Source: an uncultured Gammaproteobacteria bacterium (lineage in GTDB: Bacteria; Patescibacteriota; Microgenomatia; Levybacterales; GWA1-39-11). From it: a DNA stretch of 64,000 nucleotides. The DNA lies in assembly GCA_964651815.1 (NCBI GenBank), contig CAZYWG010000004.1:36977-100976 (forward strand), read 5' to 3'. The notes under the pieces are model-generated. The model searched no databases. It saw nothing but the letters and a program-made list of their open reading frames with translations, and had not been told where the DNA came from. Positions within the stretch are counted from its first letter, which is position 1; each line of letters begins with the position of its first letter. The translations under genes and the position numbers were made by a program. Below, piece after piece: positions 1,931 through 22,757 of the stretch.

Positions 1931-2179
1931 AAAATAGTTTTCACGGTACTTATAAATCCTGTGAAAATTGCGTCGTAACGGGGTCAATTTTATTTTTTTA
2001 ACTCAAAGAGGTACAAAGTACTATTCTCTGTTTCATAACCGCAGTTTTTGTGTCAAACAGTTCCCCAAATAAAAAGGAGTAAAAAAAGTCTAGTGTGCTA
2101 TTTGTTTATTTGGCCTGAAATCATTTCCTTAGGTGGGAATAAGAAAGTTTACACTGAAAAATTTTTTGCTTGCAAATTT

Positions 2180-6495: not shown

Positions 6496-6512
6496 TTTAG
6501 TTTATTTTGTCT

Positions 6513-8600: not shown

Positions 8601-8608
8601 ATATGTTT

Positions 8609-9925
8609 TTAATTAACGATTTCCTCGTAATATTTTTTTCCAATTTTTTCCCATGCGCGCGCCCGCCTTGCGAACGCCGCAAACTTAACAATTTTTCCCA
8701 TCAGTTTTGAATTAGTCCTAATTTTTGAAAGTTTATTGGCAAAGTCACCATTAAAATCTTCAAAAACAAGGTTGTCTATTTTAAGGTGTGCTTCGTTCAG
8801 CATCTCCTTCATGTCGTCAGCCATTAGTACGTCACGGAGCTTTGGAGAAAGTAAGAACGGTTTTTTGAATGAGAGAGCAATTGAAAGAGGCCCACTTGAT
8901 GACATAAATGTTCTGTATGGAAAAACCACCAAATCTGCAGCTTTAAAATACATTGGAATATCGCGTTCCTTAACAAAACCGGTTACCATAAAACCATTCT
9001 TTTTAGATTCATTCATAATTCCTTTAATATATCTTTGGTAATAATTTTTGTCCGTGTGATTTGGATTTGGTCCACCGGCCAAAACAAGAGCAATATCGCG
9101 CCCTTTATTTTTTTTCTTAATGTCATTTATTGCATGTACCAACCAATCAGTCCCTTTGTACCAAGCAAGAAAACCAAATGACAAAATGACAAAAGAATTG
9201 TTTTTAACCCCAAGCTTCTTCCTGGCTTCTATTCTTCCCGGGATATTTTTAAACTCTTCAACACCGTGAGGAATAACAACGATTTTTCTTGTTTCCCCCC
9301 GTGCAGATAAAGATTCTTTAAGCCCTTCCTCAAATACAATAACTTTAGTGGCTATGAATAATATGTAAGAATAAAACAACTTCAAAACCACGTCCATTAA
9401 ATCTGTTGTAAAAGATCTTTGAGAAAGATTTATATGTGGAGCAATATCTTCAAGATCATCAATTACCTGATGCATGACAAAAATAATCCTTTTGCCCATG
9501 AGTTTTAATACAGCAAGAAAGATTGGGAAGGGCAGAATATATAAAAGATTACCAAACATTGCAAGCTCAAATTCTATAAGGACTGTTTTTGAGTCGTTGT
9601 TTGTAGTTTTTAGTATTTCCCGGAGAAGAGTGGGAAACGCCGTGAAAGAATTCCTTTTCCATAATCTTTTGACTTGAATTCCCCTTTCAGTATAGTCATT
9701 TTCCGCGTCAAGCTTTTCCGCCAAAACCTCAATTGATAGCTTGTTTTTTTCAACGCCGGCCCGCCTAGACTCGCCATCGATTTCTGAGTCGAGGCTGGCA
9801 GCGCCTAAAATAGCACGGAAAGTATTTTTGGCATATGACGCGATTCCCACAACTTGTTCTCCGTGGGTTTTGCCGCGTGCCGGATAAGATGTAATAGCAA
9901 TAATTTTGTTTTTCATATTATGCAA
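8609..9925 (-). CDS. glycosyltransferase family 4 (GT-B, 'group 1')
   Basis: The C-terminal domain has the GT4 pattern (ILSFGFLAWYKGTDWLVHAIN...ALVLAGGP...FMVTGFVKERDIPMYFKAADLVVFPY). Confidence 0.8.
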   Translation of the reverse strand: MHNMKNKIIAITSYPARGKTHGEQVVGIASYAKNTFRAILGAASLDSEIDGESRRAGVEKNKLSIEVLAEKLDAENDYTERGIQVKRLWKRNSFTAFPTLLREILKTTNNDSKTVLIEFELAMFGNLLYILPFPIFLAVLKLMGKRIIFVMHQVIDDLEDIAPHINLSQRSFTTDLMDVVLKLFYSYILFIATKVIVFEEGLKESLSARGETRKIVVIPHGVEEFKNIPGRIEARKKLGVKNNSFVILSFGFLAWYKGTDWLVHAINDIKKKNKGRDIALVLAGGPNPNHTDKNYYQRYIKGIMNESKKNGFMVTGFVKERDIPMYFKAADLVVFPYRTFMSSSGPLSIALSFKKPFLLSPKLRDVLMADDMKEMLNEAHLKIDNLVFEDFNGDFANKLSKIRTNSKLMGKIVKFAAFARRARAWEKIGKKYYEEIVN

Positions 9926-10781
9926 ATAAATTAGTTATACTAGCCCATTTGATTTTCTTGATAAGGCGCTTATGGCTGGGTTTTATCTCAATAACCTTAA
10001 TAATCGATTTTAGGGCATTATTTAATGGTAGCACGCTATGTACCACGTTGTGTACCGCTCCGTGGTACCAGCGGACCTGCGCAAGTTCAAAAAGAGTTTT
10101 TAATACTGCTACTTTAAGGTCTACTTTTGTTCTTTCATCATTTGCCCATGTGACGGCTACTTCCTGGACAAAGAAACCGTTTTGCAGGGCGAGAAATAAA
10201 ATCTCGGCATCATATCCCCATCCATTAATTCTTGCTTCTGTAAAAATTTTTCTTGTTGCATTTTTTGAAAAAGCTTTAAATCCGCAGGTAAAATCAGTAA
10301 CATCAACCTGTAAAACAAATTGAGTAAGACTGGTAAATACTCTTCCCATAAGCTCACGATACAAAGGTTGATGGCGCGTTACAGTTGAGTGACCATTTTT
10401 TCTTGTTCCAATAATAACGCTTACCCCTTTTGCCATGAAAGGCGAAAGCTTTCTTAGTTCTGAAAGTGGCGTTGACATATCAGCATCAAAGAATAGAGTA
10501 TAGTCAGAATTTGACGCTAACATCCCAAGTTTTATTGCGTTTCCTTTTCCGCGGTTTTTCTTATAACTTATGACTGATAACTTTTGGCTCATAACTTCTG
10601 GCAAATTGAATATCCAAGTCCTGATGAGTTCAAAAGTTCTATCTGTTGATCCATCATCAACAAAAATAATTTGACTAAGTTTTAATCCACGCGGCAACCT
10701 TACCCGCTTTAAGGCTTCAAATGTCTTATCAATTCGCTTTTCCTCGTTATAAACGGGAATGACAAAAGATATTGTTTTCAT
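9918..10781 (-). CDS. GT2 polyprenol-phosphate glycosyltransferase (GtrB/CsbB/DPM1-like)
   Basis: GT2 signatures: ISFVIPVYNEE, FVDDGSTD, NRGKGNAIKLGM, DADMSTP. The longest ORF starts at 10847, but the internal ATG at 10781 (MKTISFVIPVYNEE) is the conventional GT2 N-terminus. The 3' end overlaps the GT4 start by 8 bp. Confidence 0.8.
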   Translation of the reverse strand: MKTISFVIPVYNEEKRIDKTFEALKRVRLPRGLKLSQIIFVDDGSTDRTFELIRTWIFNLPEVMSQKLSVISYKKNRGKGNAIKLGMLASNSDYTLFFDADMSTPLSELRKLSPFMAKGVSVIIGTRKNGHSTVTRHQPLYRELMGRVFTSLTQFVLQVDVTDFTCGFKAFSKNATRKIFTEARINGWGYDAEILFLALQNGFFVQEVAVTWANDERTKVDLKVAVLKTLFELAQVRWYHGAVHNVVHSVLPLNNALKSIIKVIEIKPSHKRLIKKIKWASITNLFA

Positions 10782-10849
10782 ATTTTTGTTCTTATTAAGA
10801 ACTCCTAAACCAGCAAATCTCTTTGTGAGCTTAGGAATAAGGTACACAG

Positions 10850-11200
10850 TTTGTGGGTTCTCGGAGCGAGGGGCTTGTCAAAGTGACAAACTTTTTCTCG
10901 TTTTGAGACCTTATTCTTTTGGCAAGAAGCTAATCGGTCACGATCGTTCTTTGTTCGCATGCAATACGCGAGTTTTAGAACATTCGGTTCCTTTCGTTCT
11001 TGTCTAATAGGTTCGTTGCCGAACATGCTTGTCTCCTTTCTGAGACTGCACGGTGCTTACCGATAAATCCGTCCCCACAAGGGAAGGAGCCAGTCTTTGC
11101 CTGGTTTGGCAAAGTAGGCGTCCAATCCCTGTGAGGCGTGAGCTCACATTACGTCAGACGTAATCCAGTGAGTGAACTCACAAGTAACCCCCGGACGGAG
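10850..11200. other. intermediate-GC structured noncoding segment at the left junction of the GC-rich island
   Basis: There are no convincing ORFs here. The segment has dense palindromes and hairpins: gtgagctcac, attacgtc-a-gacgtaat, and gttcg-ttgc-cgaac. Confidence 0.3.
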
Positions 11201-12880
11201 CTAGCCACGCTGCGCAGTCGCCTCGCAGGTCTTGTTCCCAGAGCCTGAAACGGTCTTGTTAGTCGCACCGTCCCAGTTGTTGAAAACATACCCTGCGGGG
11301 ATGTCGAAATACGCACACGTTCCACCGCCATGGATCTTGACCTTGCCGTCGTCGAGCTGATCGTAACCGGTCACAGTGTTGCAACCAGTCTTGCACCAAC
11401 CCTTAACGACCTCGGGCGTAAGTCCAGAAGCGGCAGGAGCTGCGGTCTGCTGAGCGGGCGGAGCGGAACCCTGGGCCGGAGCCTGGGGCTGAGCCGTCTG
11501 CTGAGCGGGAACCGACTGCTGAGTACCGGTCATGGCTGATACCGGGCTGATAGGCATCGGAGCTGAAGCGGGAGCCGCAACACCGGAAGCCGAAGCCAAG
11601 TGACAGTCGTGGGCAGACGTGATGACCGGAGGGACAGTCCCAACAGCCACGTAGTCGCCACACCGGTACTCGTCGTCCATGCGTGCCCACTTGCCCGCCA
11701 ACCCAGGAACAAAGTCCACGGGGGCGTCGTAGAGCGTGGCTTCCGCGACACGGAATCCAGCGTTCACGTTGGCAGGACCCCAGATGCGGACTGATGACTT
11801 GCGGTTGTTGAGAGCCGCGTTGTCAAGCCACACGTCCAGGACCTTGCCGGCTGGCACGTTCATCTCGTAGCCTGGCAAAAACACGTCGTTCTGACGCATC
11901 CCAACCATCTTGTACGAGTCGTGCACGAAATCACCGTTGGCGCGCTGCAAAGGCCACCACTGCTCAGCAGGGCCTCCGATAACGTTGCCGTTGACGGTGA
12001 AGGGCGTGAACCCGGCCTGAGTCGCCTGCGCCTTGATGCAGGGGATATTGGGCGAGTTCGTCGCGCAGCTGTTGCTGTTGGCCTGCTGGTTTGCGGGCGT
12101 GGGCGAAAGCTGCGGTGCCGTCTGCGTGGGTACTACCGTGGCAGGGACCTGCGTCGCCTGAGGGGCGGGCGGGTTGCCGGCGGGTACCGTAGGCAGAGTG
12201 GCGGGCGTCGACGAGGGTGCGGGCGTGCTAGCCGGCTTGACAGGCGTAGGCGTAGGAGCCGTAACCTGACCGGGCTTAGCTTCGTCGAGAGCCGAAACGA
12301 TGTCGCGAGCCTTGACGTCAGCGTCGAGGTTCTTGATAGTCGTCACAGCTTCGTCCTGAGACAATCCACGATCGCGGGCACTGGCATAAGCGCCTGAGAT
12401 CTTCTTGGCGTCCGGGACGTCTACGTCGTGGCTCTCCAGAGCGGTCTCGGCCTTGCCGGCGTCCTTGTTGTCGGGCGCGAGGCTATGCAAAGCGCTCGTA
12501 GAGTCGTCCCGCAGATGCGAGCCGCCGCCATTGTTGTCGTTACCACCACCGTTGAAGAACGGGATGATGACAAACCAGGCGAGCACGGCCAGCACGGCGA
12601 GTCCAGCAACAGGCATCCAGTTGCGACGGAAAAAGTCCACCAGGCCGTTGCCACGAGGCGGAGCCTCCCAATCAATCTCTTCAGCGAGACCAACGGGTAC
12701 GTTCGCGTTGAGAGCGAACTGGTTCAGGTAGTTACGCAGAATCTGGCGAGCCTGAGCCGCGGTGGCGTCATCAGGTACATTCAGACCAGCGTTCGTCAGA
12801 AGGTTGATGGCTGCAATGATCCGCAGGAGGACATCCAACGGAGCCTGATCCACCAACCGGTTAAGATCGCGATAACGCAT
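11201..12880 (-). CDS. single-pass membrane protein with an anti-sigma-factor-like architecture
   Basis: A cytoplasmic N-terminus of about 90 aa precedes one TM helix (WMPVAGLAVLAVLAWFVIIPFF). A Pro/Thr/Ala-rich linker (TAPTPTPVKPASTPAPSSTPATLP...) follows, then a Cys-containing extracytoplasmic domain. The DNA is high-GC with Actinobacteria-like protein composition. An ECF sigma gene lies upstream on the same strand. Confidence 0.5.
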   Translation of the reverse strand: MRYRDLNRLVDQAPLDVLLRIIAAINLLTNAGLNVPDDATAAQARQILRNYLNQFALNANVPVGLAEEIDWEAPPRGNGLVDFFRRNWMPVAGLAVLAVLAWFVIIPFFNGGGNDNNGGGSHLRDDSTSALHSLAPDNKDAGKAETALESHDVDVPDAKKISGAYASARDRGLSQDEAVTTIKNLDADVKARDIVSALDEAKPGQVTAPTPTPVKPASTPAPSSTPATLPTVPAGNPPAPQATQVPATVVPTQTAPQLSPTPANQQANSNSCATNSPNIPCIKAQATQAGFTPFTVNGNVIGGPAEQWWPLQRANGDFVHDSYKMVGMRQNDVFLPGYEMNVPAGKVLDVWLDNAALNNRKSSVRIWGPANVNAGFRVAEATLYDAPVDFVPGLAGKWARMDDEYRCGDYVAVGTVPPVITSAHDCHLASASGVAAPASAPMPISPVSAMTGTQQSVPAQQTAQPQAPAQGSAPPAQQTAAPAASGLTPEVVKGWCKTGCNTVTGYDQLDDGKVKIHGGGTCAYFDIPAGYVFNNWDGATNKTVSGSGNKTCEATAQRG

Positions 12881-13212
12881 TGTAGCGTCCCTTCTCTACG
12901 AGCTTTCAGCTCATAGGTGTGCGGGAGGGGTTCTTCCTCTGACATTCGTCAAAGATTCCTCCTATTAACCTCATTCCGATGTTATCGGGACGGGCTCGCT
13001 GCCGATTCTACCGTTCAAGACGGAGTACTTATACGGCACGCTATTTAGCATCTAACGGTTTTGTTCATCGCATCTCCTTGATACGTGCTAGCCGTTGCGC
13101 TTGCTACCTTCCCGCGTGTGCTTACTCTGGTGCTTCTTGCTCAGCCACTTGCTGCGCTTATGCGTTCTCAGAGCATTGTCCACGTGGGCGGTCCGAGGCT
13201 TTTTGTTGGCCA

Positions 13213-13563
13213 TCAGAATCCTCCCAGGGAGTTGACTTCTACACGAACAGTGCGTTTCCGCGTGTGAATCGTGCGACCCACGAACGTGCGTCTCGAGCGT
13301 GAAGCTCCCAGAAATGCCAACTCGTCATCGTCGTCTTCGTCCTCGAAGAACAACATGTCGGGCGGGCTGCTTGCCTCAGGTTCGGCGGTGTCTTCAGAAG
13401 CTTGAGCCTCGTCATCGAGAACTCCTCCGATGCCGTTCTTGCGAAGGGCTTCGAGTGCTTCTGCTAACCTTGCCTGTTCTGCGGCGTTTCGTTTCTGGCG
13501 AACGTTCTGGTCGCGGGCGCTGCGCTTGGCCATCTTATGATTTCCCTTTGCGTTGTCGTCCAC
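13213..13563 (-). CDS. small highly charged protein (hypothetical)
   Basis: The ORF lies in the GC-rich block between the ECF sigma gene and the anti-sigma-like gene. It has a basic N-terminus (MAKRSARDQNVRQKRN) and an acidic stretch (FFEDEDDDDE). The start may be the internal Met at 13533. I recognise no family motif. Confidence 0.3.
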   Translation of the reverse strand: MDDNAKGNHKMAKRSARDQNVRQKRNAAEQARLAEALEALRKNGIGGVLDDEAQASEDTAEPEASSPPDMLFFEDEDDDDELAFLGASRSRRTFVGRTIHTRKRTVRVEVNSLGGF

Positions 13564-13752
13564 CGTGGGTGGGCATTACGCGTGGGGGCGGCGCAGACGT
13601 TCGGCGAGGCGGAGGCTTATCACTCGCTGACTGGTTTGCACCGGTCAGTTGATTAGCTTGTCGCCTGCCTTTTTTCGGTTCCTTAGACACTCTCTATCCT
13701 CCTGCGGGGCTGAAAGACTTCCAGTAGTCAATCGATGCTCCCTCGGGGGACT

Positions 13753-14298
13753 TCAGGCAAGAAGCTTGCGGAGATCCGCTAGCGTTCTGAACTGAAGCAC
13801 ACGTGTCACGGGGACAGTCATACCGAGCGCGGTAGCCGCCTCTTCGTAATCTTTGTCCTCGTAGAACCGCAACCTGACCAGCTTTCGCTTGTCACTAGGA
13901 AGCTTACCAACAGCGTCGCGAACGAGTTGCTCGTCCTCTAGCTGAAGAATAACAGCTTCAGGGTTGTGGTTCTGTTTCTCCTCCATGATGTCATCATCAA
14001 GCCGGTCGTTATCCCGCTTGCGCATGTGACTGATTGTCACGTTGTGCGCTATACGAAGTAACCAGCCTGCGAAAGCGTGACGATCCCTGCAACAGCCGAC
14101 TGCCTGCCAAGCCTTGAGAAAGGTCTCGGAGGTAAGGTCGTCTGCAACGTGGTTGTCACATACCATGAAGTAGATGTGTCGGTAGACACGCGTAGAGTAA
14201 CGACCGTAGAGTTCTCCGAACGCATCTGCGTCGCCTGCCGTAGCACGCAACACAAGATTTTGTTCTTCGTTCTCTCCGGTAAGAGCCAGAGTGGTCAT
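13753..14298 (-). CDS. ECF-type RNA polymerase sigma factor (sigma-70 regions 2 and 4)
   Basis: Region 2-like segment: FGELYGRYSTRVYRHIYFMV...SETFLKAWQAV. Region 4-like segment: KRKLVRLRFYEDKDYEEAATALGMTVPVTRVLQFRTLADLRKLL. A GAGG motif precedes the ATG. Confidence 0.85.
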   Translation of the reverse strand: MTTLALTGENEEQNLVLRATAGDADAFGELYGRYSTRVYRHIYFMVCDNHVADDLTSETFLKAWQAVGCCRDRHAFAGWLLRIAHNVTISHMRKRDNDRLDDDIMEEKQNHNPEAVILQLEDEQLVRDAVGKLPSDKRKLVRLRFYEDKDYEEAATALGMTVPVTRVLQFRTLADLRKLLA

Positions 14299-14645
14299 GC
14301 CACCGCCTCGCTTTCGCGAGAGTGTACCTGACTACTGGCTCGTAAGAATTCGGGCACTTCGTCCAGACTGCTTTTCGGCAGAGGCGTCTTGAAGACGTTG
14401 CCATTGGCGGTCGGGATGAGGAGAGAGTCGCGGGACTGTTCAAGCGGGCAGAGTGCCAACTGTAAGACAGCGTCCGTGAAGCTCCTCAAGTGCTCCGAGT
14501 CAGACCTGATGTCTGCCACACGATACTCGAACTTAATCGGGTATGTATCAAGTAAACTCAGGATGAGCTTCTTGACCCCGTGGGCAATCAGTTCAGGCGG
14601 CAACTCGCAAGCGAGAGCCTTGGGGGCGGGGTTGTTGCGGGGCAT
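14295..14645 (-). CDS. hypothetical protein translationally coupled to the ECF sigma gene
   Basis: Its stop overlaps the sigma start by 4 bp (ATGA). It is high-GC. No motif recognised. Confidence 0.4.
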   Translation of the reverse strand: MPRNNPAPKALACELPPELIAHGVKKLILSLLDTYPIKFEYRVADIRSDSEHLRSFTDAVLQLALCPLEQSRDSLLIPTANGNVFKTPLPKSSLDEVPEFLRASSQVHSRESEAVA

Positions 14646-14953
14646 GGAACCTATCCTTTTGGATTTCAGAATCGAGCTTGCCGTTTATACACCGTCCCTT
14701 ATTTTTCTATACCTTCCTCTCTTTCTTTGCTAATCAATGGCCGAATAAAACGCACCTTTTTCAAGTGTCAAACACCACGCACCATGCGCAGTTTCATGAC
14801 ATGGTACGCTGGGTTTAACACCTTATTTCATCTCGCTTATCGCGGGATTAAAGATGCGCTATATTCGGCCACCGAAGTCTTATATATGTATATATAAGGA
14901 AAGGGAGGATTAATAAATTCATTTGTACTCCAAATGAGTACTATTATCGGTTA

Positions 14954-14974
14954 GTTCCAATTTTAAATTGGAAC
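14954..14974 (+). terminator. near-perfect 21-bp palindrome followed by a T-run
   Basis: The sequence is gttccaattt-t-aaattggaac, followed by ctctttt. It sits at the switch from GC-rich to AT-rich sequence. Confidence 0.3.
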
Positions 14975-15443
14975 TCTTTTACACTAATGAAATTTTTCAT
15001 CAGTGTTTCGAAATGTGTTTGAATAACACATTTCTCAACCTATTAGAATATATCTACTTTTCATCACAATGATACGACTCCTCGTTTTTAACTCGGAGTG
15101 ACAAAATATGTTTAAATAACACATTTTGTCAAGCGTGATTACGCAAATAGATATTCTGTGTACCTTTTGTTAAAGAACAACTAATAACTTGTAACTTAAA
15201 ACTTAAACTAGCTATGCTTTTAAGCCAGATAAGTCCAGTTACTCACTACTAGAATATACCGTCCTAAAAAAGGCACTTCTGTCGTTCCAATAGAACAACA
15301 GTCTGTGACCTTGTAAGGTCGGAGTAAGTGGTTTCAAGCGAAGTTTATTTTGAAGGTTTGTTTTTTGGGTCTTCTGCGGGCGCTGAACTGAAAGTGAAGT
15401 TGAAACTGCTTGAAACTGCTCCCTCCTGCCTTAAGGTAGGGTT

Positions 15444-16142
15444 TTAATTAATTTTCTTTTTAAGAAAGAATCCGAGTGCTCCGGACGAAATTAGTCCGAA
15501 TAATATGTCTGTTTCAGGCCCAGTAGATGGTACTTGATTAACAGTTGGTTTTTGAAAGATTTGTGGTGTGTTAGGCGTTGTTACACCAAGAATATTTTTT
15601 TCAATACAAACCTGAGAATTATCAGTTGCTTGCTGACCATCGGTTGAAGTTGCAGTTACATTGTTTATGACACAAGTGACAGCTTGGTTGTTTGGTAATT
15701 GTGCGCCGTCTGCTGTTTTTGCAGTTATAATGAATTCTGCTTTTTGACCTTTTGGAAGTGAGTTAACTACAAAGTTTATTTGAGATGCACCTGCATTGGA
15801 ATTTCCAACACCAGATACAAAGGTTAAGAATTGTGGGAAGGTATCAACAACATTAAGGTTTGAAATGTCAGTATCTCCTGTGTTTTCTACAACTATTTTA
15901 AAGTTTACGTTTTGGTTTGGAGCAAAGCGAGGATCATTAACAGTAAGGTTGTCAACAAAATCTCCGCCGCCTTTTCCAGGCTTTTGGACTAATTTGTTGA
16001 TTGTGAATTTAATTTGTGATTGACAGACTTGTCCACCACCATAAACTATTTGACAGTTAGACTGTCCACCAGAAGCGAGTGCGTTTCCTGCAACAGAAAA
16101 CAAAAGAGTTGCGGCAAAGACAAAAGTTAAAAGTTTTTTCAT
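15444..16142 (-). CDS. DUF11-like repeat-domain surface protein with a C-terminal sortase-type sorting signal
   Basis: Signal peptide MKKLLTFVFAATLLFSVAGNALA. A DUF11-like segment (NFKIVVENTGDTDISNLNVVDTFPQFL) is present. The C-terminus is VPSTG + hydrophobic stretch + KKKIN. The start was chosen at the Met preceding the signal peptide (16142) rather than the longest ORF (16190). Composition is host-like (AT-rich) even though the gene is embedded in the GC-rich island. Confidence 0.6.
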   Translation of the reverse strand: MKKLLTFVFAATLLFSVAGNALASGGQSNCQIVYGGGQVCQSQIKFTINKLVQKPGKGGGDFVDNLTVNDPRFAPNQNVNFKIVVENTGDTDISNLNVVDTFPQFLTFVSGVGNSNAGASQINFVVNSLPKGQKAEFIITAKTADGAQLPNNQAVTCVINNVTATSTDGQQATDNSQVCIEKNILGVTTPNTPQIFQKPTVNQVPSTGPETDILFGLISSGALGFFLKKKIN

Positions 16143-16689
16143 AAATTCAAACGATTTGTGAATTGTAGCATAACAAAAAGCATTTGTCAAGTGCTATAGG
16201 ACGTGATGTGTAGTTAATAGTTTATAGTGAATAGCTAATAGGTGAAAATTAATAAGATGGGGCCTTGATATATATAATAGGTAGAGTGGGTTGGTAATAA
16301 AGAGCAACTGTATTATAGGACTCTTTGTAAGAGTTGGGTAAAAAGAGACGGGTAGCGGGACTTAGCAGAAAGCTGTCTACGAGTTATATAAACCTCGGGC
16401 CTGTCCTCCTCCGGTCAATAAATTCATCCGCCTTAGTAAAAACTTCGGCGAGATAGATCGTAAACAGCTTCCTGCTCACTACGCTTCTACGTGGTAAAAA
16501 TGTAAAACGGGGGGCCCTGAAGGGATATACTGGTGTGAACCAGGGCAGAGAAGCAGTGCTATCTCAACCATCCCCCCAGGGCCTTGTCCCCATGACAAAG
16601 TCAATGAATTACGTTCATCACGCGTGTGGGTTGTACCTCATCGGTACTTTATGAAGGATCCCACAAGAACCCCGATTTAAGGTTTTCTC

Positions 16690-17694
16690 CTATCCGTTTT
16701 TGAGGCAGGGTATGCCCCACAGGCTTTCGCCGGCTGCAATCCACGTTGCCTTGCTAGGGTTGTCAGTCCTGCCTACGGTTCCACAAGTCCATTCGCCATG
16801 ATAGGCGTTTAGCCACGTGTCAAAGTAGACAGTTGCCTCAGCGAAGTTCATCTTGAAGGCCGGGCCGACCACAGTGATGCTAGGAGCATGCGTGACAGTA
16901 TCAGCAGGAAGGTTGAGAAACTCGTTGCTTTTAGAGCTGAGTTTGCATCCCTGCGTCAAGAAACCAAACTGGTCTCGAGCCTGCTTCCACGAGTCCGACG
17001 GGCCCCCTATCACAGCTGACATGGTCTGACAGAAATAGTCGCCATTGGCATACTTGTGTCCGTTGGCATCTACGGTTCCGTCAGAGTTGAATATGGGGTG
17101 TAGGACCTGACCACTGCCTCCCTTGATGGGGGGTAGAGGCTGGGAGTCCTTTTGTGTTTTCCCAACAGTGCCCGCAGGTGTACCAGCAGGAAGCCTGTTG
17201 AGATAGAACATGCCCCATTCAACATCAGGTAACGACAGAGTGTTGCCGCTCTCGACCTCTCCGGTGACGCGCTTGCCATGCGTGTCGACGGTGTACGACA
17301 GGACATAGATGCGTCCGTCGTTGTTGTAGCTGAAGTTCGCGGGAATTTCTAGTGTCACAGTCTCGCCGTAGTCCATTGTAGCCTGGTTGGCCGCGTCATG
17401 GAAACGAGAATCAGTGTTGCACGTTGCACACCAGCTTTTGACCGTGAGGCCAAAGAGGCTGGGGGCGCACTCCTGCTTACCGCACATAGGAAACGTGGCC
17501 GAAGCCGCGCTAGCGGAAGTGGGAGTGTTTGCCGGGCTGTTGGCAGTGACTTTCGTGTTGGTTGGCTTTGTGTTGTTGATGGGCGCACTCGTCTCGTTGT
17601 CGGTTGTCGTTGACTTGGACGTGTGCGAACCGCCGCAGGCCACTGCGAGAAGCAGCAGAGCCCCGAGAGCCAGAGAACCAATTCGAGTTGTCAT
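16690..17694 (-). CDS. lipoprotein (hypothetical), high-GC
   Basis: Signal peptide with a lipobox (LLLAVAC|GG). It is Thr/Asn/Pro-rich after the Cys and has multiple Cys residues. A strong SD (taGGAGGacac) lies upstream of the ATG. Confidence 0.6.
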   Translation of the reverse strand: MTTRIGSLALGALLLLAVACGGSHTSKSTTTDNETSAPINNTKPTNTKVTANSPANTPTSASAASATFPMCGKQECAPSLFGLTVKSWCATCNTDSRFHDAANQATMDYGETVTLEIPANFSYNNDGRIYVLSYTVDTHGKRVTGEVESGNTLSLPDVEWGMFYLNRLPAGTPAGTVGKTQKDSQPLPPIKGGSGQVLHPIFNSDGTVDANGHKYANGDYFCQTMSAVIGGPSDSWKQARDQFGFLTQGCKLSSKSNEFLNLPADTVTHAPSITVVGPAFKMNFAEATVYFDTWLNAYHGEWTCGTVGRTDNPSKATWIAAGESLWGIPCLKNG

Positions 17695-17710
17695 TTCGTG
17701 TCCTCCTAGA

Positions 17711-17965
17711 CTAACGTGAATTCGTGCTTGCCGATTTGTAAATCACCTCGTAGTGAGGTGTGTGGGTAGGCTCCTTGTGTGGGAGTATGTTCTCCAGGTT
17801 GATGAACCCGATGACCATTACCACTGTGAGCATCCCAGCTACTGTCCATACGCCTGCGCGCAGAACTTTGTCTTCATTAGCCGTTTTCTGGCGCTGGTGC
17901 TCGATCATCATGACCAAGACACAAACCAGAGCCAAGCCGATCCAAACCGCGGGGTGTTCGAACAT
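17711..17965 (-). CDS. small two-TM membrane protein (hypothetical), high-GC
   Basis: Two hydrophobic helices (VWIGLALVCVLVMMI and VWTVAGMLTVVMVIGFI). An SD (aaaGGAGAcac) lies 8 nt upstream. Confidence 0.4.
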   Translation of the reverse strand: MFEHPAVWIGLALVCVLVMMIEHQRQKTANEDKVLRAGVWTVAGMLTVVMVIGFINLENILPHKEPTHTPHYEVIYKSASTNSR

Positions 17966-18170
17966 TTGTGCGTGTCTCCTTTAAGACTACGAATGTGTCT
18001 GTCTCAACGAGTGTTGAGCGTAGACTGTGCCTGCCGATGTGTTTTTAGCGGGGTTTATGTCAGATTTTTGATTCGATCAACTCCTTATGCTATCCGCTAT
18101 AACTTCTCCATACCCAAAGTGGGTACATGGCTAACTTCTCATGAAGCGCAATCTGAATGTTAAATTATAC

Positions 18171-18192
18171 TGGATTCCCGCGTTCGCGGGAA
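18171..18192. repeat. GC-rich perfect hairpin at the right edge of the island
   Basis: attcccgcg-ttc-gcgggaat, a 9-bp stem. Confidence 0.4.
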
Positions 18193-19112
18193 TGACAGTG
18201 TAACATCCACAGTGCGCCTCACAAAAAATGCCTAAAAAACCTTAAATCTTACTTTCTATTGTCAAAGAGCTTTGTCATGGCTCGCTTACCACAAGCTTCG
18301 TCATACATGCCTATATAGGCACAAGATCTAGCTTGTCTGGGCGAGCAGCAATTACCTCTTGCAGCCATAAATTCAGCTATTGAATTGAGGCTACTTGAAA
18401 TAAAGCTCCGCTGAACAGTTTTGAGTCTAATCAGCGAAAGAGTGCAGAGGATAGAGATTCTGAAATAAATTCAGAATGACAATTAATCCTGCGCACACTC
18501 TTTCGGCGATTAAGTTCTGGTTTAATTTTGCTATATCCTTCAGGCACTTAACGTGCCTTGTAGGATGTTGGCTCTGGCGCACTTGAAAAACAAAGTTTTC
18601 ATCGTACTTTTTGCTTAGCGCGAACTCTCATAGGATCAGACATATCTATTAATCCTTCGCTAACGCTCAGGATGATGGTTTAACACCATCAAAAAACCAG
18701 CCTCTGTCTTGGTGGCCACAAGTCTTGCGAAAAAACGCAAGTCTTGTGAATTCCAAATACGGACAGGTGTATAGGAAAACCAAGCTATTAGCTGGTAATT
18801 AACTTACAGGCTCTTTTTTTAAAGTACGCTCGTGCCTACAATAGGCACAAAGTGAGTAAGTATATCAAGAACTATAGGATTTGTCAATATACCTACGCAC
18901 GAAATTTTATTGAGTAATTTCGTGCCTAAAATCTTACCCAAGATTGGGAGCAGCTTTTAGCTATAAGCTGTTAACTTTTAGATCGAACAATCAGGCGATC
19001 TATTACTTAACCCTAAATCATATTACGGGATATTAAATCATAGTCTAAATATATATAAATATGGCTAAATATGTCTTTAGCCTCGATTCCTAAATCGGTG
19101 TTAGAAAACTCT

Positions 19113-19140
19113 TGACAATTGGGGTGGGGCATGTGATAAT
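19113..19140 (+). promoter_or_regulatory. sigma-70-like promoter upstream of rho
   Basis: TTGACA, a 16-nt spacer, then TGtGATAAT (extended -10). A ~120-nt leader with a cttcga...tcgaag hairpin follows before the rho ATG. Confidence 0.4.
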
Positions 19141-19266
19141 AGTCTTGCTTCGAGATCTTCTTCGAAGATGTTCTCCGGATTCAAGTTTTAAGTAAAATTT
19201 TGCCAAAGAGCCGGTCGGAACATTTAAATTTTCATATTTACATTTGATTTTTTATACCTAAATTCT

Positions 19267-20718
19267 ATGCCAGTACGAAGTACTAAATCTGCAAAGATTG
19301 TTAAAGCAAAAACCCTAGAGCCCAAGGAATTGGAAGATGTTAAGGTGACTGAGCCTCAGAGTGAGGCTAATATCGAGTCTATCGAAACTCCTACCACAGT
19401 TCCTTCGGAAGAGGCTACAGTCATGCCTCCTGAGCCTATGAGGTCGGAAGAATCTGGTAATTCAGATAACAGAATGAATGTGGACATGGATTCGCAGGCG
19501 CAAGACAGGTCAGATCGTGGCCAATCGTCATCTTATCAGCCTCGTGGAAGATATTCAAGAGATAGTTATAATGACAGACCGGACCGTGAGGTAGACGTGC
19601 GTGCTGACGAAGTCACCGTGCCTGTTTCAGGAATTCTTGATATCCAGCATGAGGGACACGGATTTCTCCGTCCCAAATTCCGTGCCTCCGACCGTGATAT
19701 TTATATTTCAGCCTCACAAATTAGACGTTTTTGGCTAAGAGGCGGAGATTTAGTTGAAGGGGTTGGGCGTCCTCCAAAAGATAATGAGCGGTATTTTGGC
19801 CTTTTAAAAATAGAAAAAGTAAATGGAGATGAGCCTGATAAATCGCTTCGCAGGCCCCATTTTGATGATTTAACGCCTATTTACCCAAAAGAGCAAATTA
19901 TGCTCTCAACCGGAAAAACGCCTCTTTCAACCAGAATTATAGATATAGTATCTCCAATTGGATTTGGGCAGCGTGGAATGATAGTCTCGCCCCCAAAAGC
20001 CGGTAAAACAACCATTATTAAAGAGGTGGCAGCAGGTATTTCAGCCAATTACCCTGACGTTCACTTAATGGCTGTTTTGATAGGTGAGAGGCCTGAAGAG
20101 GTAACAGACATCTCAAGAAGCGTAAGGGGTGAGGTTGTAGCCTCAAATTTTGATGAATCTCCTGAAACACAGACTAGAATTGCCGAGATTGCCATGGAAC
20201 GTGCTAAGCGCCTGGTTGAGCGTGGAGTACGCGTGATAATATTACTTGATTCTATTACGAGGCTGGCTCGTGCCTATAATTTGTCCATTGATCCTTCCGG
20301 TCGTACGCTCACGGGTGGATTTGACCCTGCGGCTTTATATCCTGCAAAGCGTTTCTTTGGAGCTGCTAGAAATTGTGAAGAAGGCGGCTCGCTTACTATA
20401 ATTGGAACAGCCTTGGTTGATACAGGATCACGCATGGATGACTTGATATTCGAGGAATTTAAGGGTACTGGGAACATGGAAGTACACTTGGATCGTCGTC
20501 TTGCGGAAAGAAGAATTTGGCCGGCAATTAATGTAGAGCGCTCCGGAACCCGTGCTGAGGAATTGATACTTGACGAAGAAACCCTCAAAAAAGTAACAAC
20601 TTTGAGGCGAATGATTGATGTATTAGGGCAGGATGAAAGAACAGAGGTATTGATGGAAAGAATTGCAAAGACAGAAAATAATAAAGAATTCCTCGAAGCC
20701 CTCGGAAAAGGCGAATAA
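19267..20718 (+). CDS. rho: transcription termination factor Rho, with a ~110-aa charged N-terminal insertion
   Basis: Rho OB-fold segment (ILDIQHEGHGFLRPKF...YISASQIRRFWLRGGDLVEG). P-loop GQRGMIVSPPKAGKTT. The C-terminal RecA-like region is conserved. The N-terminus is acidic and Arg/Ser-rich. Confidence 0.9.
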   Translation: MPVRSTKSAKIVKAKTLEPKELEDVKVTEPQSEANIESIETPTTVPSEEATVMPPEPMRSEESGNSDNRMNVDMDSQAQDRSDRGQSSSYQPRGRYSRDSYNDRPDREVDVRADEVTVPVSGILDIQHEGHGFLRPKFRASDRDIYISASQIRRFWLRGGDLVEGVGRPPKDNERYFGLLKIEKVNGDEPDKSLRRPHFDDLTPIYPKEQIMLSTGKTPLSTRIIDIVSPIGFGQRGMIVSPPKAGKTTIIKEVAAGISANYPDVHLMAVLIGERPEEVTDISRSVRGEVVASNFDESPETQTRIAEIAMERAKRLVERGVRVIILLDSITRLARAYNLSIDPSGRTLTGGFDPAALYPAKRFFGAARNCEEGGSLTIIGTALVDTGSRMDDLIFEEFKGTGNMEVHLDRRLAERRIWPAINVERSGTRAEELILDEETLKKVTTLRRMIDVLGQDERTEVLMERIAKTENNKEFLEALGKGE

Positions 20719-20788
20719 AAACCTAATTTAGCTCCGGATTCTCTTGCATCTCCCTTGACATATAAAAATTTAGAGTTAGAATCTAGGC

Positions 20789-21358
20789 ATGACTCAAATA
20801 GAAAGCGACTCCCTACTTGCAGCAGCATACAAGCGTGAGCATTTGGAAAGTGGACTTGCTGTTTCAGCAAGGGCATTGCAAGAGAAACGTAATAATGTAC
20901 CCCTGGTTTGGCCTGAATGGTTCAAGGAAGACGGCCAATTTTTAAGTGAGACAGGAGCACTCGATGCATTAAGGAGAGCTCGCAACCGTCTTTTGGTGGA
21001 ATACAAAGACGCAAGAATAATTGTATCTCCAACCGATGAGCTTGGAATGGAATCGACTCCGAGACTTTTTTTAATTTGGGGGAATCAGGAAAGGCCGAGA
21101 AAATGGAGCGTCCATTGGATGTTTAATGCTGTAGGTGTATATCCAAAAAAAGATGAAAACGGGAAAAGGCTAGGGGTTGTATTTGACGGTAGTCGCGGAT
21201 ACGTAGCAACATTAGGGGAGTCCGAATTAACTGGCGAATCATTTGACGCGTCGATAGTGAAGGCTGCTAATGGGTCAGGCTTGATATCTGGATATCCTCC
21301 TACAAGTCCGTTCAGATTTGTCAAACAAAGAAAAATTGCTGCGGCGACAATCAGATAG
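20789..21358 (+). CDS. hypothetical protein
   Basis: An intact 189-aa ORF downstream of rho. No motif recognised. Confidence 0.35.
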   Translation: MTQIESDSLLAAAYKREHLESGLAVSARALQEKRNNVPLVWPEWFKEDGQFLSETGALDALRRARNRLLVEYKDARIIVSPTDELGMESTPRLFLIWGNQERPRKWSVHWMFNAVGVYPKKDENGKRLGVVFDGSRGYVATLGESELTGESFDASIVKAANGSGLISGYPPTSPFRFVKQRKIAAATIR

Positions 21359-21366
21359 AGTTCTAT

Positions 21367-22272
21367 CTATTGTAGGAAACTGAGGGGGTTGTAGAAGCTT
21401 CCGCCGCCTCTTACTTCAAAGTGAACGTGAGGACCTGTTGTCCTTCCTGTCAATCCAATCCAGCCAACAACACTTTTACCAGCAGCGACCGTTTGACCCA
21501 CAGAAACATTTACGCCAGACATGTGTGCATAGAGTGTTGTATAACCGTTGTCTCCATGAATTAGGACATGTGTGCCATAGCCGCCATTGTATCCGCTTGT
21601 GAAGACCTCAGAAACCGTCCCATTTGAAGATGCAACGATTGGTGAACCGTAAGGCGCTGCTATATCTGCAGCTTGGTGGTACCAAGAGAACCCTTGTGTG
21701 ACAAGGCCGTGAATTGGCCATGTAAATCCACCGGCTGATATAGATACCGGGCCGGTTGCTATATATTGCGTACGAATTACACGAGGCGCTTCCTGCGGTG
21801 GAACGCCGTCCGGGACAATTAATATCTCTCCTTCAATGAGGGAGAATGTCTGCGGATTTGCAAAGTCGTTGAAAGGGAAATCAACAATACTTTGCGCATC
21901 AATACCATATTTTTTAGCAATTGTGTATACTGTCTCGCCCCTTACAACCTTATGAGAGACACCGGTTACTGGGAGGACATCCAATTGGTCGCCTGCCGTA
22001 ATTGTGTCTGAAGTGAGGCTGTTTTGCCATTTTATAGTATCTGTTGAGACGCCAAATTTTTTGGCAACTGTTGAAATAGTATCTCCATTTTGGACGGTAT
22101 AGGTTAATATTTTGTCTCTGGGTTTTTGGCTTGTTTGAGTATTGAATACGTCAACAGAAGTAATAGATGAATCCGTAGCGCCTTGGGCAAATGAAAGATT
22201 TTTATTTTGGCCAAAAAGATTTGTGTCTGAGATAAACGGAGAGAAAATGACACCAAGAGTAAGAACCGTCAT
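21367..22272 (-). CDS. LysM-domain M23 family peptidase (peptidoglycan hydrolase)
   Basis: Two LysM repeats (YTVQNGDTISTVAKKFGVS...; HKVVRGETVYTIAKKYGID...). M23 motifs: YHQAADIAAPYGSPIVAS, HVLIHGDNGYTTLYAHMS, GRTTGPHVHFEV. The longest ORF runs to 22587, but its N-terminal ~105 aa are not protein-like. The start at the Met of MTVLTLGVIFSPF (22272) is inferred. Confidence 0.75.
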   Translation of the reverse strand: MTVLTLGVIFSPFISDTNLFGQNKNLSFAQGATDSSITSVDVFNTQTSQKPRDKILTYTVQNGDTISTVAKKFGVSTDTIKWQNSLTSDTITAGDQLDVLPVTGVSHKVVRGETVYTIAKKYGIDAQSIVDFPFNDFANPQTFSLIEGEILIVPDGVPPQEAPRVIRTQYIATGPVSISAGGFTWPIHGLVTQGFSWYHQAADIAAPYGSPIVASSNGTVSEVFTSGYNGGYGTHVLIHGDNGYTTLYAHMSGVNVSVGQTVAAGKSVVGWIGLTGRTTGPHVHFEVRGGGSFYNPLSFLQ

Positions 22273-22757
22273 AGCGCTTATATGCAAGAAAATTCTATTT
22301 CTGCGGCCACGTTTTATTAAAATGTTTCTGACTAAGCTTCCTTTTGATCCCTCAAAGCGAGCTGAAATGAAAATTATTTTATCCTTAAGATATATGTTAA
22401 GAAAGGAAACAAATCCCTTAAACTGGTGGAATAAGTAAACATATGATTGCCTTGAGAATATGGATTTGAAAGTAACTTTTGCCTCGTTTATAAGTTGCAT
22501 GTGATTGAATAGCGTTGAAAATAGGTCTTGGGCTCTAACTTCAACCGAAAGCTGAATAGGGTTCGGCCGCGGCACAAATACAAGCATCTATCTCGCTAAG
22601 CGGGATAGAAGAGCCATTAGCTTACCAGAAATGACAAGAAAAAGTCAAACCCCGAGCAGACAATAGTTATTAGTTAATAGGGAATAGTTTATAAAATCGA
22701 GCATTTGAAGATGACTTCTCAATTTCTGCTTTAACAACCAATCAGTTATTATATATT

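Follow-up and report, generated by a model that had tools for sequence, protein, structure and literature searches.

GC-rich DNA within an AT-rich genome could be a recent import, it could be an error of assembly, or it could be a standing feature of the locus where it lies. We addressed this question in a 64,000-nt stretch (the window) of a Levybacteria genome, a member of the CPR with a reduced genome, as had been supposed, where an earlier note had described two foreign-looking blocks on either side of an AT-rich gene. The composition jump is real. In 1-kb windows, GC was 0.59, 0.61, 0.55, and 0.49 across 11 to 15 kb and 0.45 and 0.55 across 16 to 18 kb, versus 0.31 to 0.47 in the remaining 58 kb. 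In 300-nt windows, block 1 exceeded 0.52 from ∼10.95 kb, reached a maximum of 0.68 (12.0–12.3 kb), lay mostly at 0.53 to 0.60, and had fallen to 0.36 by 14.7 to 15.0 kb; block 2 ran at 0.497 to 0.58 across ∼16.35 to 18.0 kb and never exceeded 0.58. Therefore, the earlier description of both blocks as above 60% GC is valid only at ∼11.25 to 12.75 kb and in one window near 13.5 kb, and the low-GC gap between them is wider than the ∼1.35 kb first given, at ∼1.65 kb. The contrast is sharpest in GC3: 0.58 to 0.70 in the six minus-strand island ORFs versus 0.23 to 0.41 in all 34 other ORFs of the window. Composition-normalized tetranucleotide usage also set the blocks apart from host DNA (r = 0.09–0.24, versus 0.86–0.90 among host segments), so their foreign appearance was borne out, as was the placement of all island genes on the minus strand.

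These composition steps are sharp and sit at noncoding, hairpin-rich junctions, as might be expected if high-GC contigs had been joined to an AT-rich one during assembly or binning. The left junction (10848..11200, GC 0.49), which separates the GT2 gene from block 1, is the hairpin-rich 3′ flank of a 559-aa gene; the right edge of block 2 carries the predicted hairpin at 18.17 kb, a GC-rich palindrome (ATTCCCGCGTTCGCGGGAAT, 18174..18193) present once in the window and followed by TATAAT on the minus strand. We compared the window with Logan per-run contigs (SRR9179560 and SRR9179562), made with a different assembler, three of which matched it at 100% over 2602 to 15429 (contig L001, which crosses the left junction), 15983 to 18199, and 16353 to 23051. 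Because these contigs span all four junctions (10.85, 14.9, 16.4, and 18.2 kb), the window is not a chimera; the independent contigs retrieved gave no cover at 15429 to 15983, inside the host-type DUF11 gene. The same AT/GC/AT arrangement and gene order recur in 24 other assemblies from different groups and assemblers (IDBA, SPAdes, and MEGAHIT names), and the chimera that the earlier note had left as an option can be set aside with near certainty.

The gene between the blocks encodes a DUF11/CLIPPER surface protein of 232 aa (15444..16142, minus strand) that carries a signal peptide and, at its C terminus, a PxTGPE motif, transmembrane (TM) helix, and basic tail. It has host composition, as first described (GC3 0.23), and its start at the ATG at 16142 is favored because a promoter-like site lies at 16190 to 16162 on the minus strand. 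We found 19 syntenic GTDB loci, and the conserved gene order is LysM-M23 peptidase, Rho, DUF11, a slot, GT2, GT1, a polytopic membrane protein, and a ∼1100-aa protein. A GC-rich block (0.9–4 kb, GC 0.52–0.63) follows the DUF11 gene in 24 independently assembled relatives besides the window, beginning 270 to 810 nt past the DUF11 stop at the 23 loci measured. Because every relative examined has a GC-rich block in this slot, the stretch is not a recent one-off import, and the DUF11 gene, taken at first for an interruption of the island, is the conserved anchor that the slot adjoins. We put at about three in four the probability that the two blocks represent, in this genome, a variable slot beside DUF11 that is common to all sampled Candidatus Levybacteria.

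Slot gene content differs in family between lineages and includes many unrelated singletons; one slot gene is an ordinary, housekeeping-type SPFH/Band 7 gene with a GC3 of 0.68. The singletons and the SPFH/Band 7 gene fit repeated imports as well as turnover in place. Read by eye, most slot proteins have a TM helix or lipobox anchor, Pro/Thr/Ala linkers, and a Cys-containing ectodomain. Some cassette types, four plus that of locus L010, share an N-terminal motif, W(V)NDPTRTxxDLR...LGL...G...LRxRI, ahead of differing ectodomains. The blocks are mosaic: L030 and L034 reach 99% identity across 300 nt of the block, with flanks at 80 to 87%; L031, the closer relative when judged by flanks, is 26 to 58% identical inside the block; and L006 and L007 are 86% identical in one slot protein domain (the X domain, below) and 46% in DUF11. 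Cassettes are exchanged among Levybacteria, with the outer flanks remaining collinear.

In this genome, the slot gene next to GT2 encodes an envelope protein of a family that we call X (559 aa; 11201..12880, minus strand; GC3 0.70). Its cytoplasmic N terminus carries a HeH/SAP-like motif; the rest comprises a single TM helix, linkers of Pro/Thr/Ala, a beta-sandwich domain of 160 aa that contains Cys (residues ∼268–430), and a small C-terminal domain. X orthologs occupy the same slot in six other lineages, with GC3 at 0.67 to 0.72 across all seven; the X domain is 62 to 94% identical among them, and the flanking proteins are 43 to 83% identical. Searches of 5.8 G proteins and of 1.84 G representatives found no X homolog above 50% identity outside the slot. 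A remnant of the ancestral X start (MSEEEPLPHT...; 12796..12945, minus strand), with a strong AGGAGG Shine-Dalgarno site, now reads as an overlapping uORF of 49 codons; compared with L010, a net insertion of ∼14 nt has put it in a different frame from the main ORF.

Upstream of X lies a sigma factor operon found only in this genome and in one other lineage (L010/L011). Its central gene (13753..14298, minus strand; 181 aa; GC3 0.58) encodes a BldN-like group 4 ECF sigma factor, the identification being borne out by Pfam Sigma70 r2, r4_2, and r4 domains; it passed TIGR02937, and its best NCBIfam model, TIGR02952 (BldN), scored 110.8 bits, below the cut-off of 206.45. The preceding 116-aa ORF, s116a (14295..14645, minus strand), overlaps the sigma start (ATGA) and is kept with sigma in L010/L011 at 60 to 73% amino acid identity. 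Downstream of sigma are an acidic 116-aa ORF of no family (13213..13563, minus strand; 106 aa from the ATG at 13533), not conserved in L010, and a conserved, very basic 41-aa ORF (MANKKPRTAHVDNALRTHKRSKWLSKKHQSKHTREGSKRNG; 13088..13213, minus strand), whose start overlaps the stop of the ORF before it (TGATG), which also has a gene call in Logan contig L005, and which a conserved leader of ∼140 nt separates from the X gene. The 41-aa region is 88% identical to L010/L011 over 310 nt and the sigma gene is 75% identical. Good Shine-Dalgarno sites had been ascribed to all island genes; they are strong for the 41-aa ORF and two block 2 genes, the lipoprotein and the 84-aa ORF, whereas s116a, sigma, and the X gene have sites of moderate or weak strength.

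Block 2, on the Rho side of DUF11, encodes a 334-aa lipoprotein (16690..17694, minus strand; GC3 0.64; in Logan contigs L002 and L003) with a Thr/Pro/Ser-rich linker and the LAVAC lipobox that had been noticed, reading ...LLLAVAC|GG, and, upstream of it, an 84-aa ORF that by eye resembles a two-TM membrane protein (17711..17965, minus strand; GC3 0.66). A search of 5.8 G proteins returned only the lipoprotein's own sequence; the small domain at the C terminus of X is weakly similar to it (E = 8e-4). Block 2 has no recognizable sequence counterpart in any relative, and it is placed in the same system as the slot by position, composition, and protein style alone.

We asked whether these genes look actinobacterial, as the earlier note had proposed. 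The closest named relatives of sigma are proteins of Frankiales MAGs, 35 to 38% identical, and a high-GC bacterium is the probable ultimate source of the sigma module; neither X nor the lipoprotein has a recognizable actinobacterial homolog. A single recent actinobacterial acquisition by this genome, later split by insertion of a host DUF11 gene, would account for the GC3 contrast, the BldN-like sigma, and the Ala/Pro/Thr-rich linkers and lipobox. It is nevertheless very improbable given that every relative examined has a GC-rich slot beside a DUF11 gene that is a conserved neighbor, that X is orthologous across lineages, and that no island protein matches an actinobacterial one better than sigma does, at 35 to 38%.

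A broader version of import is that the DUF11-adjacent site is an integration hot spot, which each lineage filled separately and fairly recently from high-GC bacteria, so that GC-richness marks unameliorated foreign DNA; the donors could be organisms on which Levybacteria live. The widely different slot contents with their many singleton families and the GC-rich SPFH gene agree with this, as do the nearest non-island relatives of sigma, which are 44 to 48% identical to it and lie in contigs of 66% GC, its named relatives, which are from Frankiales, and the pooled island tetranucleotide signature, which resembles that of the high-GC contigs of the sigma relatives (r = 0.65). Horizontal transfer and genomic islands are also described as common in Patescibacteria (PMC12455944). 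Against it, all seven lineages with X orthologs in the slot still show an X GC3 of ∼0.7, the N-terminal motif is common to cassettes with different ectodomains, neither X nor the lipoprotein has a homolog above 50% identity outside the slot in either protein set searched (5.8 G and 1.84 G), and the best non-island sigma relative is only 48% identical (the best island relative, P0007 in L010/L011, is 65%). At the locus we found no tRNA, att repeats, nearby integrase, phage or defense families, or viral relatives, and among the 24 loci there was no partly ameliorated intermediate. We consider separate recent filling unlikely.

We conclude that GC-richness is a long-lived property of the cassette pool and not a signature of recent transfer. 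The window blocks resemble the pooled islands of other loci in composition-normalized tetranucleotide signature (r = 0.72 and 0.49). A polarized third-position test counted 23 S>W and 7 W>S changes, implying an equilibrium GC3 of ∼0.60 from too few events to tell slow decay from equilibrium, with a method that returned 0.40 on flanks where the true value is ∼0.30. Our working guess is that GC-biased gene conversion at a recombination hot spot, together with an originally high-GC ancestry, keeps the slot GC-rich.

The slot is also preceded by a previously undescribed leader hairpin (14755..14826, minus strand; 72 nt), which sits in the AT-rich spacer just ahead of the GC rise and ∼110 nt before the first island ORF. 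The region 14730 to 14880 (minus strand) folds at −75.9 kcal/mol (z = −10.5). The hairpin has no Rfam match, and a model of it (R1) matched the sense strand once at each of 25 loci and nowhere else in 431 kb, with 96.6% canonical pairs and compensatory changes at 16 of 19 helix pairs. Two tandem copies of GCAGTTTCA (sense), 24 to 42 nt past the DUF11 stop (15401..15419, minus strand), are complementary to its apical loop, and loop and site covary across lineages. Many G-U pairs of the helix are retained on the sense strand, which scores 89 bits versus 33 for the other strand; both features point to RNA. The two elements might instead be the inverted repeats of a fim-like invertible promoter that switches the island in phase variation: they are 7 to 11 nt long, bracket a 200- to 600-nt AT-rich spacer with promoter-like sites on both strands, and covary as two inverton ends would, and Logan unitigs of two runs both end at 15429, ∼10 nt beyond the outer repeat. 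This seems improbable to us, since none of 25 assemblies has a flipped spacer, contig L001 is continuous through both repeats, no recombinase gene lies nearby, and one repeat is in the loop of that strand-biased helix.

In the variable-slot reading, transcription would run from DUF11 or the spacer through the leader hairpin, whose loop would pair with the DUF11 3′ UTR. The slot proteins would be displayed at the surface under diversifying pressure from hosts or phages, and the adjacent glycosyltransferases may glycosylate them. This genome's slot holds the X-family protein behind the BldN-like sigma operon, with block 2 as an orphan on the Rho side of DUF11.

Among known systems, the sigma factor resembles Streptomyces BldN in being small, with regions 2 and 4 only, and in its best model match, although it falls under the equivalog cut-off. 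The arrangement recalls ECF sigma/membrane anti-sigma pairs, in which a single-pass membrane protein with a cytoplasmic N terminus is encoded downstream; unlike in those pairs, no anti-sigma domain was recognized in X or the small ORFs, and in six lineages X orthologs are present with no accompanying sigma, so anti-sigma activity is not the main role of X. The locus shares with fimS-type invertible promoters, and with long-range RNA loop-linear pairings, short inverted complementary elements around a promoter-bearing spacer upstream of surface-protein genes; it differs in that we observed no inverted orientation or recombinase and in that one of the elements falls within the loop of an RNA helix that covaries. 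In the CPR, a Gracilibacterium genome has one locally hypervariable Pro/Thr-rich gene thought to be under diversifying pressure (mBio 2019, PMC6851277); that variation is within a population and in a tandem-repeat region of one gene, whereas the anomaly of the Levybacteria slot is one of composition, and whole ectodomains and genes there are swapped out from one lineage to the next. Composition-predicted islands are reported in CPR genomes, with most transfers occurring between Patescibacteria (mSystems 2025, PMC12455944); term searches of that paper returned no conserved position-specific GC-rich slot, Levybacteria locus, or leader RNA.

Replacement-type flexible genomic islands, such as the O-antigen and other surface-structure loci of marine bacteria and enterobacteria, are typically AT-rich and encode polysaccharide pathways. 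Like the Levybacteria slot, they occupy the same chromosomal position in relatives with different, often unrelated genes in each, specify cell-surface products, are exchanged with collinear conserved flanks, and keep an atypical base composition. Unlike them, the Levybacteria slot deviates upward by ∼20 GC points, is kept across a whole candidate phylum or order and not among strains of one species, encodes proteins with a shared anchor module, and is preceded by a conserved structured RNA.

Sliding-window GC resolved two GC-rich blocks in an otherwise AT-rich window: block 1 at ~10.95–14.75 kb (GC mostly 0.53–0.68) and block 2, on the Rho side of the DUF11 gene, at ~16.35–18.0 kb (GC 0.50–0.58), compared with 0.31–0.47 in the rest of the 64-kb window. 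The six minus-strand block ORFs had GC3 values of 0.58–0.70 vs 0.23–0.41 in all 34 other window ORFs, and composition-normalised tetranucleotide usage also set both blocks apart from host DNA. These measurements bear out the two blocks described in the earlier note, whose estimate of above 60% GC holds at ~11.25–12.75 kb and not in the remaining block DNA. Several of its other observations were reproduced: the DUF11 gene between the blocks has host composition (GC3 0.23), the predicted ECF sigma factor contains Pfam regions r2 and r4, the lipoprotein carries a lipobox (LAVAC followed by GG), and the hairpin at 18.17 kb is a single-copy palindrome (18174–18193). Good Shine-Dalgarno sites had been claimed for all genes; they are strong for some and moderate for others. 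The underlying observation is sound, but the choice it was framed as, between a recent import and an assembly chimera, is wrong on both counts.

A chimera is ruled out at all four junctions by Logan contigs, per-run assemblies made by another assembler which we retrieved by exact-protein look-ups. From run SRR9179560, contigs L001 and L003 cover window positions 2602–15429 and 15983–18199; from run SRR9179562, L002 covers 16353–23051 and L005 starts at 15429. All four are 100% identical to the window, and taken together they span the junctions at 10.85, 14.9, 16.4, and 18.2 kb. For positions 15429–15983, inside the host-type DUF11 gene, exact-protein DUF11 look-ups have no independent cover on record; gene order across this interval agrees with the conserved synteny of relatives. 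In two different runs the Logan unitigs stop exactly at position 15429, and the contigs recovered after them begin at 15983 and 16353, so DUF11 was not contiguously assembled in either run. The break may reflect strain-level DUF11 variation or structural polymorphism at an adjacent repeat.

The neighbours in the window are typical of CPR genomes (a pilin-like giant protein, LeuRS, pyruvate kinase, Rho, and a LysM-M23 peptidase). Using aligned sequences of the DUF11 neighbour as the query, we recovered 19 loci from GTDB species representatives, and every informatively titled locus among them is Candidatus Levybacteria or Levyibacteriota. L018, L020, L021, L024, L026–L034, and L036 come from TPA_asm MAGs titled 'uncultured Gammaproteobacteria bacterium' and have Levybacteria-type synteny and proteins; these titles look like placeholder taxonomy. 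Six metagenomic contigs (L006–L009, L037, and L038) were located via X, the 559-aa envelope protein encoded at 11201–12880 (minus strand). In all 19 GTDB loci the genes run TPR protein, LysM-M23, Rho, DUF11, a variable interval we call the slot, GT2 and/or GT1, a ~1100-aa protein, and pyruvate kinase. A GC-rich block lies 3' of DUF11 in all 19 GTDB loci and in the six metagenomic contigs; counted as relatives of the window, 24 of 24 loci carry it. Automatic segmentation of 23 loci placed the block start 270–810 nt past the DUF11 stop, with a length of 0.9–4 kb and a GC of 0.52–0.63 vs 0.36–0.46 elsewhere in each locus. Segmentation failed for L033, whose profile shows the same GC rise, and L038 was inspected by GC profile alone.

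Because a GC-rich block follows DUF11 in all loci examined, the island is a lineage-wide feature. The same-site block in 24 of 24 related loci contradicts a recent foreign acquisition, and a related genome without the insert was not found among them. Likewise, the DUF11 gene, which had been read as interrupting the island, is the conserved anchor of the slot. On its Rho side, L018 carries six GC-rich ORFs (1–3500, GC3 0.69–0.78) and L021 shows a weaker elevation (6000–10000, GC 0.46–0.53); these genes are unrelated to the block 2 genes of the window, and the Rho–DUF11 interval may be a second slot that is occasionally used.

A recent horizontally transferred island would have atypical composition, which is present, but the locus is not empty in relatives and has neither mobility hallmarks nor close donor homologues. 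The window contains no tRNA or tmRNA gene, the island has no flanking direct (att-like) repeats >20 nt, and no integrase catalytic domain turned up in the island, in its flanks, or in ten large ORFs scanned across the window. A 1377-aa protein (36774–40907, minus strand) has an odd architecture of two N-terminal phage-integrase SAM-like domains plus Peptidase_S74 (endosialidase chaperone); here too, an integrase catalytic domain was not detected. We rejected a phage origin, since IMG/VR scans returned no relatives of X (by alignment), the lipoprotein, or the sigma factor, PHROGs matched a generic sigma family alone, and PADLOC returned nothing. An integron cassette array was also rejected; there is no integrase, and each locus has one conserved hairpin, upstream of the whole block. 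Close homologues from a donor lineage were lacking for all three proteins: the best non-island relative of the sigma factor is 48% identical, X has 32–37% identity outside its own clade, and the lipoprotein has zero relatives. The Actinobacteria-like character ascribed to the island proteins extends to the sigma factor, whose named relatives are Frankiales MAG proteins (35–38%), and not to X or the lipoprotein.

On the minus strand, the AT-rich DNA that separates DUF11 from block 1 has a very stable predicted fold (14730–14880, −75.9 kcal/mol, z = −10.5). Its core is a 72-nt leader hairpin (14755–14826, minus strand) conserved in 25 loci. Compared with five relatives, 99.1% of alignment cells are paired, compensatory changes occur at 10 of 19 pairs, and none of 500 shuffles did as well. 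A covariance model of the hairpin, derived from this alignment, gave exactly one sense-strand match per locus in these 25 (the window, L006–L009, L018–L035, L037, and L038), always between DUF11 and the GC-rich block, and its only other matches in 431 kb were antisense shadows of the same hairpins. The 25-sequence alignment, which is biased towards structure because it is model-fitted, has 96.6% of cells paired and double changes at 16 of 19 pairs, with slid controls at 27–44% paired. The many G-U pairs, together with scores that are far higher on the sense strand, indicate that the hairpin acts as RNA. Rfam 15 gave no gathering-score match in the window and none at 14755–14826 even at E ≤ 1; we attribute a RAGATH-10 match at 14353–14428 (24 bits vs a gathering score of 41.2, E = 0.53) to chance.

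The apical loop of the hairpin is complementary to a site 21–47 nt past the DUF11 stop (73 nt in L034; 15401–15419 in the window), and loop and site covary between lineages. The loop/site pairs are UGAAACUGC/GCAGUUUCA, UUGAAACAGC/GCUGUUUCAA, AUGAAAGCUGC/GCAGCUUUCAU, UAAAGCUGC/GCAGCUUUA, AAGCUGCC/GGCAGCUU, AGAGACA/UGUCUCU, and AAACUAC/GUAGUUU. A match of equal length was seen in 0–11% of control windows elsewhere per locus, the exception being L035 (6-nt match, control 41%). This complementarity suggests long-range RNA pairing in a putative DUF11–island co-transcript. The two elements could instead be the inverted repeats of a fim-like invertible promoter, as their spacing (7–11 nt complementary elements 200–600 nt apart) and the promoter-like sites between them would allow, but the spacer was never found flipped (25 of 25 assemblies are collinear) and there is no recombinase near the locus, making this the less likely explanation. 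We therefore favor long-range RNA pairing, and the hairpin with its covarying partner is a candidate new cis-regulatory RNA.

Besides itself, X has only four homologue clusters among 5.8 billion proteins, and exhaustively searching 1.84 billion representatives with a profile of its 160-residue domain gave 20 proteins. All close X homologues with readable context lie in the same slot, with GC3 of 0.67–0.72. Between X-bearing genomes, the flanking proteins are 43–83% identical overall (Rho 79–83%, LysM-M23 58–63%, GT2 58–64%, GT1 49%, DUF11 43–50%, ~1100-aa protein 44%), so synonymous sites must be saturated; despite this divergence, the GC3 of X is unrelaxed. The ancestral start of X (MSEEEPLPHT with a strong AGGAGG Shine-Dalgarno; 12796–12945, minus strand) no longer shares the reading frame of the main ORF. 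Relative to L010 (1394–1639), the shift is caused by a net insertion of ~14 nt, which also introduces a TAG, and the disruption is real since two Logan runs agree on the sequence. Translation must either restart at the internal ATG at 12880, where the ORF now begins, or couple to a 49-codon overlapping uORF.

Searching GTDB species representatives with two conserved motifs did not find X; their slot is filled by other families. In other Levybacteria the slot holds different GC-rich genes, including an SPFH/Band 7 gene, which fall into at least five small families plus many singletons. The motif W(V)NDPTRTxxDLR...LGL...G...LRxRI (HeH/SAP-like) is common to the X proteins and to proteins of L025/L026, L029, L035, and L010, whose ectodomains differ. 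Read by eye, most slot proteins continue after the motif with a TM helix or lipobox, Pro/Thr/Ala linkers, and a Cys-containing ectodomain. X and the lipoprotein share a single weak BLASTP match (E = 8e-4) over a ~45-residue C-terminal module, and the X-domain profile did not detect the lipoprotein.

Exchange of these cassettes is visible in L030, L031, and L034. By their flanks, L034 and L031 are closest (86–97% nucleotide identity) and L030 is the outlier (80–87%). Inside the slot, L030 and L034 are 98–99% identical over 300 nt (L030 8860–9100) vs 26–58% for L031, which points to a very recent cassette transfer between L030 and L034, two GTDB species representatives. Short conserved blocks bracket this cassette, at L030 ~7943–8042 (overlapping the 5' part of the leader hairpin) and ~9201–9300. 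L006 and L007 are 86% identical in the X domain and 46% in DUF11, with the opposite trend for L006 and L008 (65% vs 61%). Given the flank/insert incongruence in both sets of loci, we conclude that the slot is a recombination hot spot with cassettes circulating in the lineage. Features of a replacement island are present: the same site between conserved flanks, differing content, and phylogenetically incongruent flanks and inserts.

In the window, X is preceded by a sigma operon that consists, in this order, of s116a (a 116-aa ORF at 14295–14645, minus strand), the ECF sigma gene, one small basic and one 116-aa acidic ORF, and a conserved 41-aa basic ORF with a leader that is likewise conserved. 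The 181-aa sigma factor has Pfam Sigma70_r2 (1e-16), r4_2, and r4, as expected of ECF (group 4) factors, and passes the TIGR02937 sigma70-ECF cut-off (80.4 vs 42.9 bits). Its best NCBIfam model, the BldN equivalog TIGR02952, scores below its cut-off (110.8 vs 206.45 bits); by these scores the protein is BldN-like and not a demonstrated BldN. In a search for an adjacent anti-sigma factor, neither s116a nor the 116-aa ORF, any of the small ORFs, or X matched a Pfam or NCBIfam family; X has a predicted cytoplasmic N terminus and TM helix, and its orthologues occur without the sigma gene. The same sigma module was found only in L010 and L011, short contigs of GC 0.53–0.55 (sigma 65%, s116a 60–73% identical). 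The extremely basic 41-aa ORF (13088–13213, minus strand) and its ~140-nt leader (12946–13087) are 88% identical to L010/L011 at the nucleotide level, vs 75% for the sigma gene, pointing to a small protein or RNA under strong constraint, which would include a CCGT-loop-ACGG hairpin. The next sigma relatives (44–48% identical) sit in uniformly 66% GC contigs, adjoining Tad-pilus genes. For the sigma module, we consider an old high-GC, possibly actinobacterial, ancestry plausible and a recent transfer implausible. Upstream of the island genes, a search for the ECF-type promoter motif GAAC-N14-19-CGT found nothing convincing.

Block 2 encodes an 84-aa ORF resembling a membrane protein and the lipoprotein, for which we found no homologues at all. 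Rho and block 2 are separated by 1.3 kb of noncoding DNA, which contains two TGCCTA-N2/3-TAGGCA palindromes (18308–18321 and 18833–18847) that occur nowhere else in the 64 kb (0.02 expected). A promoter-like site (18859–18887, minus strand) is near-consensus (TTGACA-17-TATACT with TG), and one of the palindromes lies just downstream, such that the two could form an operator–promoter pair.

Directly downstream of the slot (3094–10847, minus strand) are GT2, GT1, a polytopic-looking 695-aa protein, and the ~1100-aa protein, the last two without a family; the order is the same in L006 and L019–L036. Below-cut-off NCBIfam matches of GT2 include PgfS, ArnC, and DPM-type polyprenyl-phosphate sugar transferases, and the downstream genes could be a glycosylation module for Pro/Thr-rich slot proteins. 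A 1858-aa protein elsewhere in the window (25407–30983, plus strand) has an N-terminal pilin methylation motif and a T2SSG domain followed by four Laminin_G_3 domains, and by this architecture is a predicted giant pilin-like adhesin, a type of protein that CPR genomes are seen to encode.

We considered why the slot stays GC-rich. A polarised count of third-position changes in X gave 23 S>W and 7 W>S on 145 S and 30 W sites, an implied equilibrium GC3 of ~0.60 from few events; on host genes the same count implied 0.40 for a true value of ~0.30, i.e., it carries a parsimony bias. The slot is compatible with being near its own compositional equilibrium. Our preferred guess is that GC-biased gene conversion at an exchange hot spot keeps it there. 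The main rival is a continuous supply of slot DNA from unsampled high-GC donors. The tetranucleotide signature of the pooled islands, which correlates with the two window blocks (r = 0.72 and 0.49), is unlike that of the host and closer to the 66% GC contigs (r = 0.65).

The slot is conserved, recombining, GC-rich, and variable, and it encodes predicted membrane- or lipid-anchored proteins behind a conserved leader RNA. TM helices, lipoboxes, Pro/Thr linkers, and Cys-rich ectodomains can be read from these proteins, which would be surface-displayed and under diversifying selection, with linkers possibly O-glycosylated by the products of the conserved downstream genes (GT2, GT1, and the 695-aa protein). 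Transcription would enter the slot through the leader hairpin, and the ECF sigma factor may add an extra regulatory layer in the window genome. A more far-reaching reading, to which we give roughly three chances in ten, is of a candidate-phylum-wide GC-rich locus (~+20 points, GC3 ~0.7) actively held against AT-biased substitution, possibly because cassette exchange makes it a hot spot of localised GC-biased gene conversion. In this reading a new RNA element would gate expression of the locus, with the apical loop of the covarying leader hairpin pairing over 200–600 nt with the upstream DUF11 3' UTR.

The locus is more interesting than either a recent import or a chimera. Composition-based island callers or MAG curators would call the region recent HGT or contamination, neither of which holds; it is a stable lineage-wide feature, and therefore trimming it as a chimera loses real genes, which probably matter for host interaction. 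Its orthologous GC-rich genes, undecayed in AT-rich genomes diverged to ~50% protein identity, offer a natural test of amelioration theory, and if GC-biased gene conversion or selection is the cause, an effect of this size is unusual among bacteria. Candidate determinants of partner recognition or phage evasion in these uncultivated episymbiont-like organisms are the variable envelope proteins and also the ECF sigma factor, a class rare in this small-genome (CPR) lineage.

Targeted literature searches returned no description of this locus. Published work on horizontal transfer in Patescibacteria describes composition-called islands in general terms (PMC12455944), and in a Gracilibacterium one Pro/Thr-rich gene is known to be hypervariable (PMC6851277). 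The closest likeness is to replacement-type flexible genomic islands, in which different surface-related genes occupy the same site between collinear flanks and are exchanged between lineages. Unlike those islands, this locus combines an upward shift in composition with conservation across a whole candidate phylum and a dedicated leader RNA.
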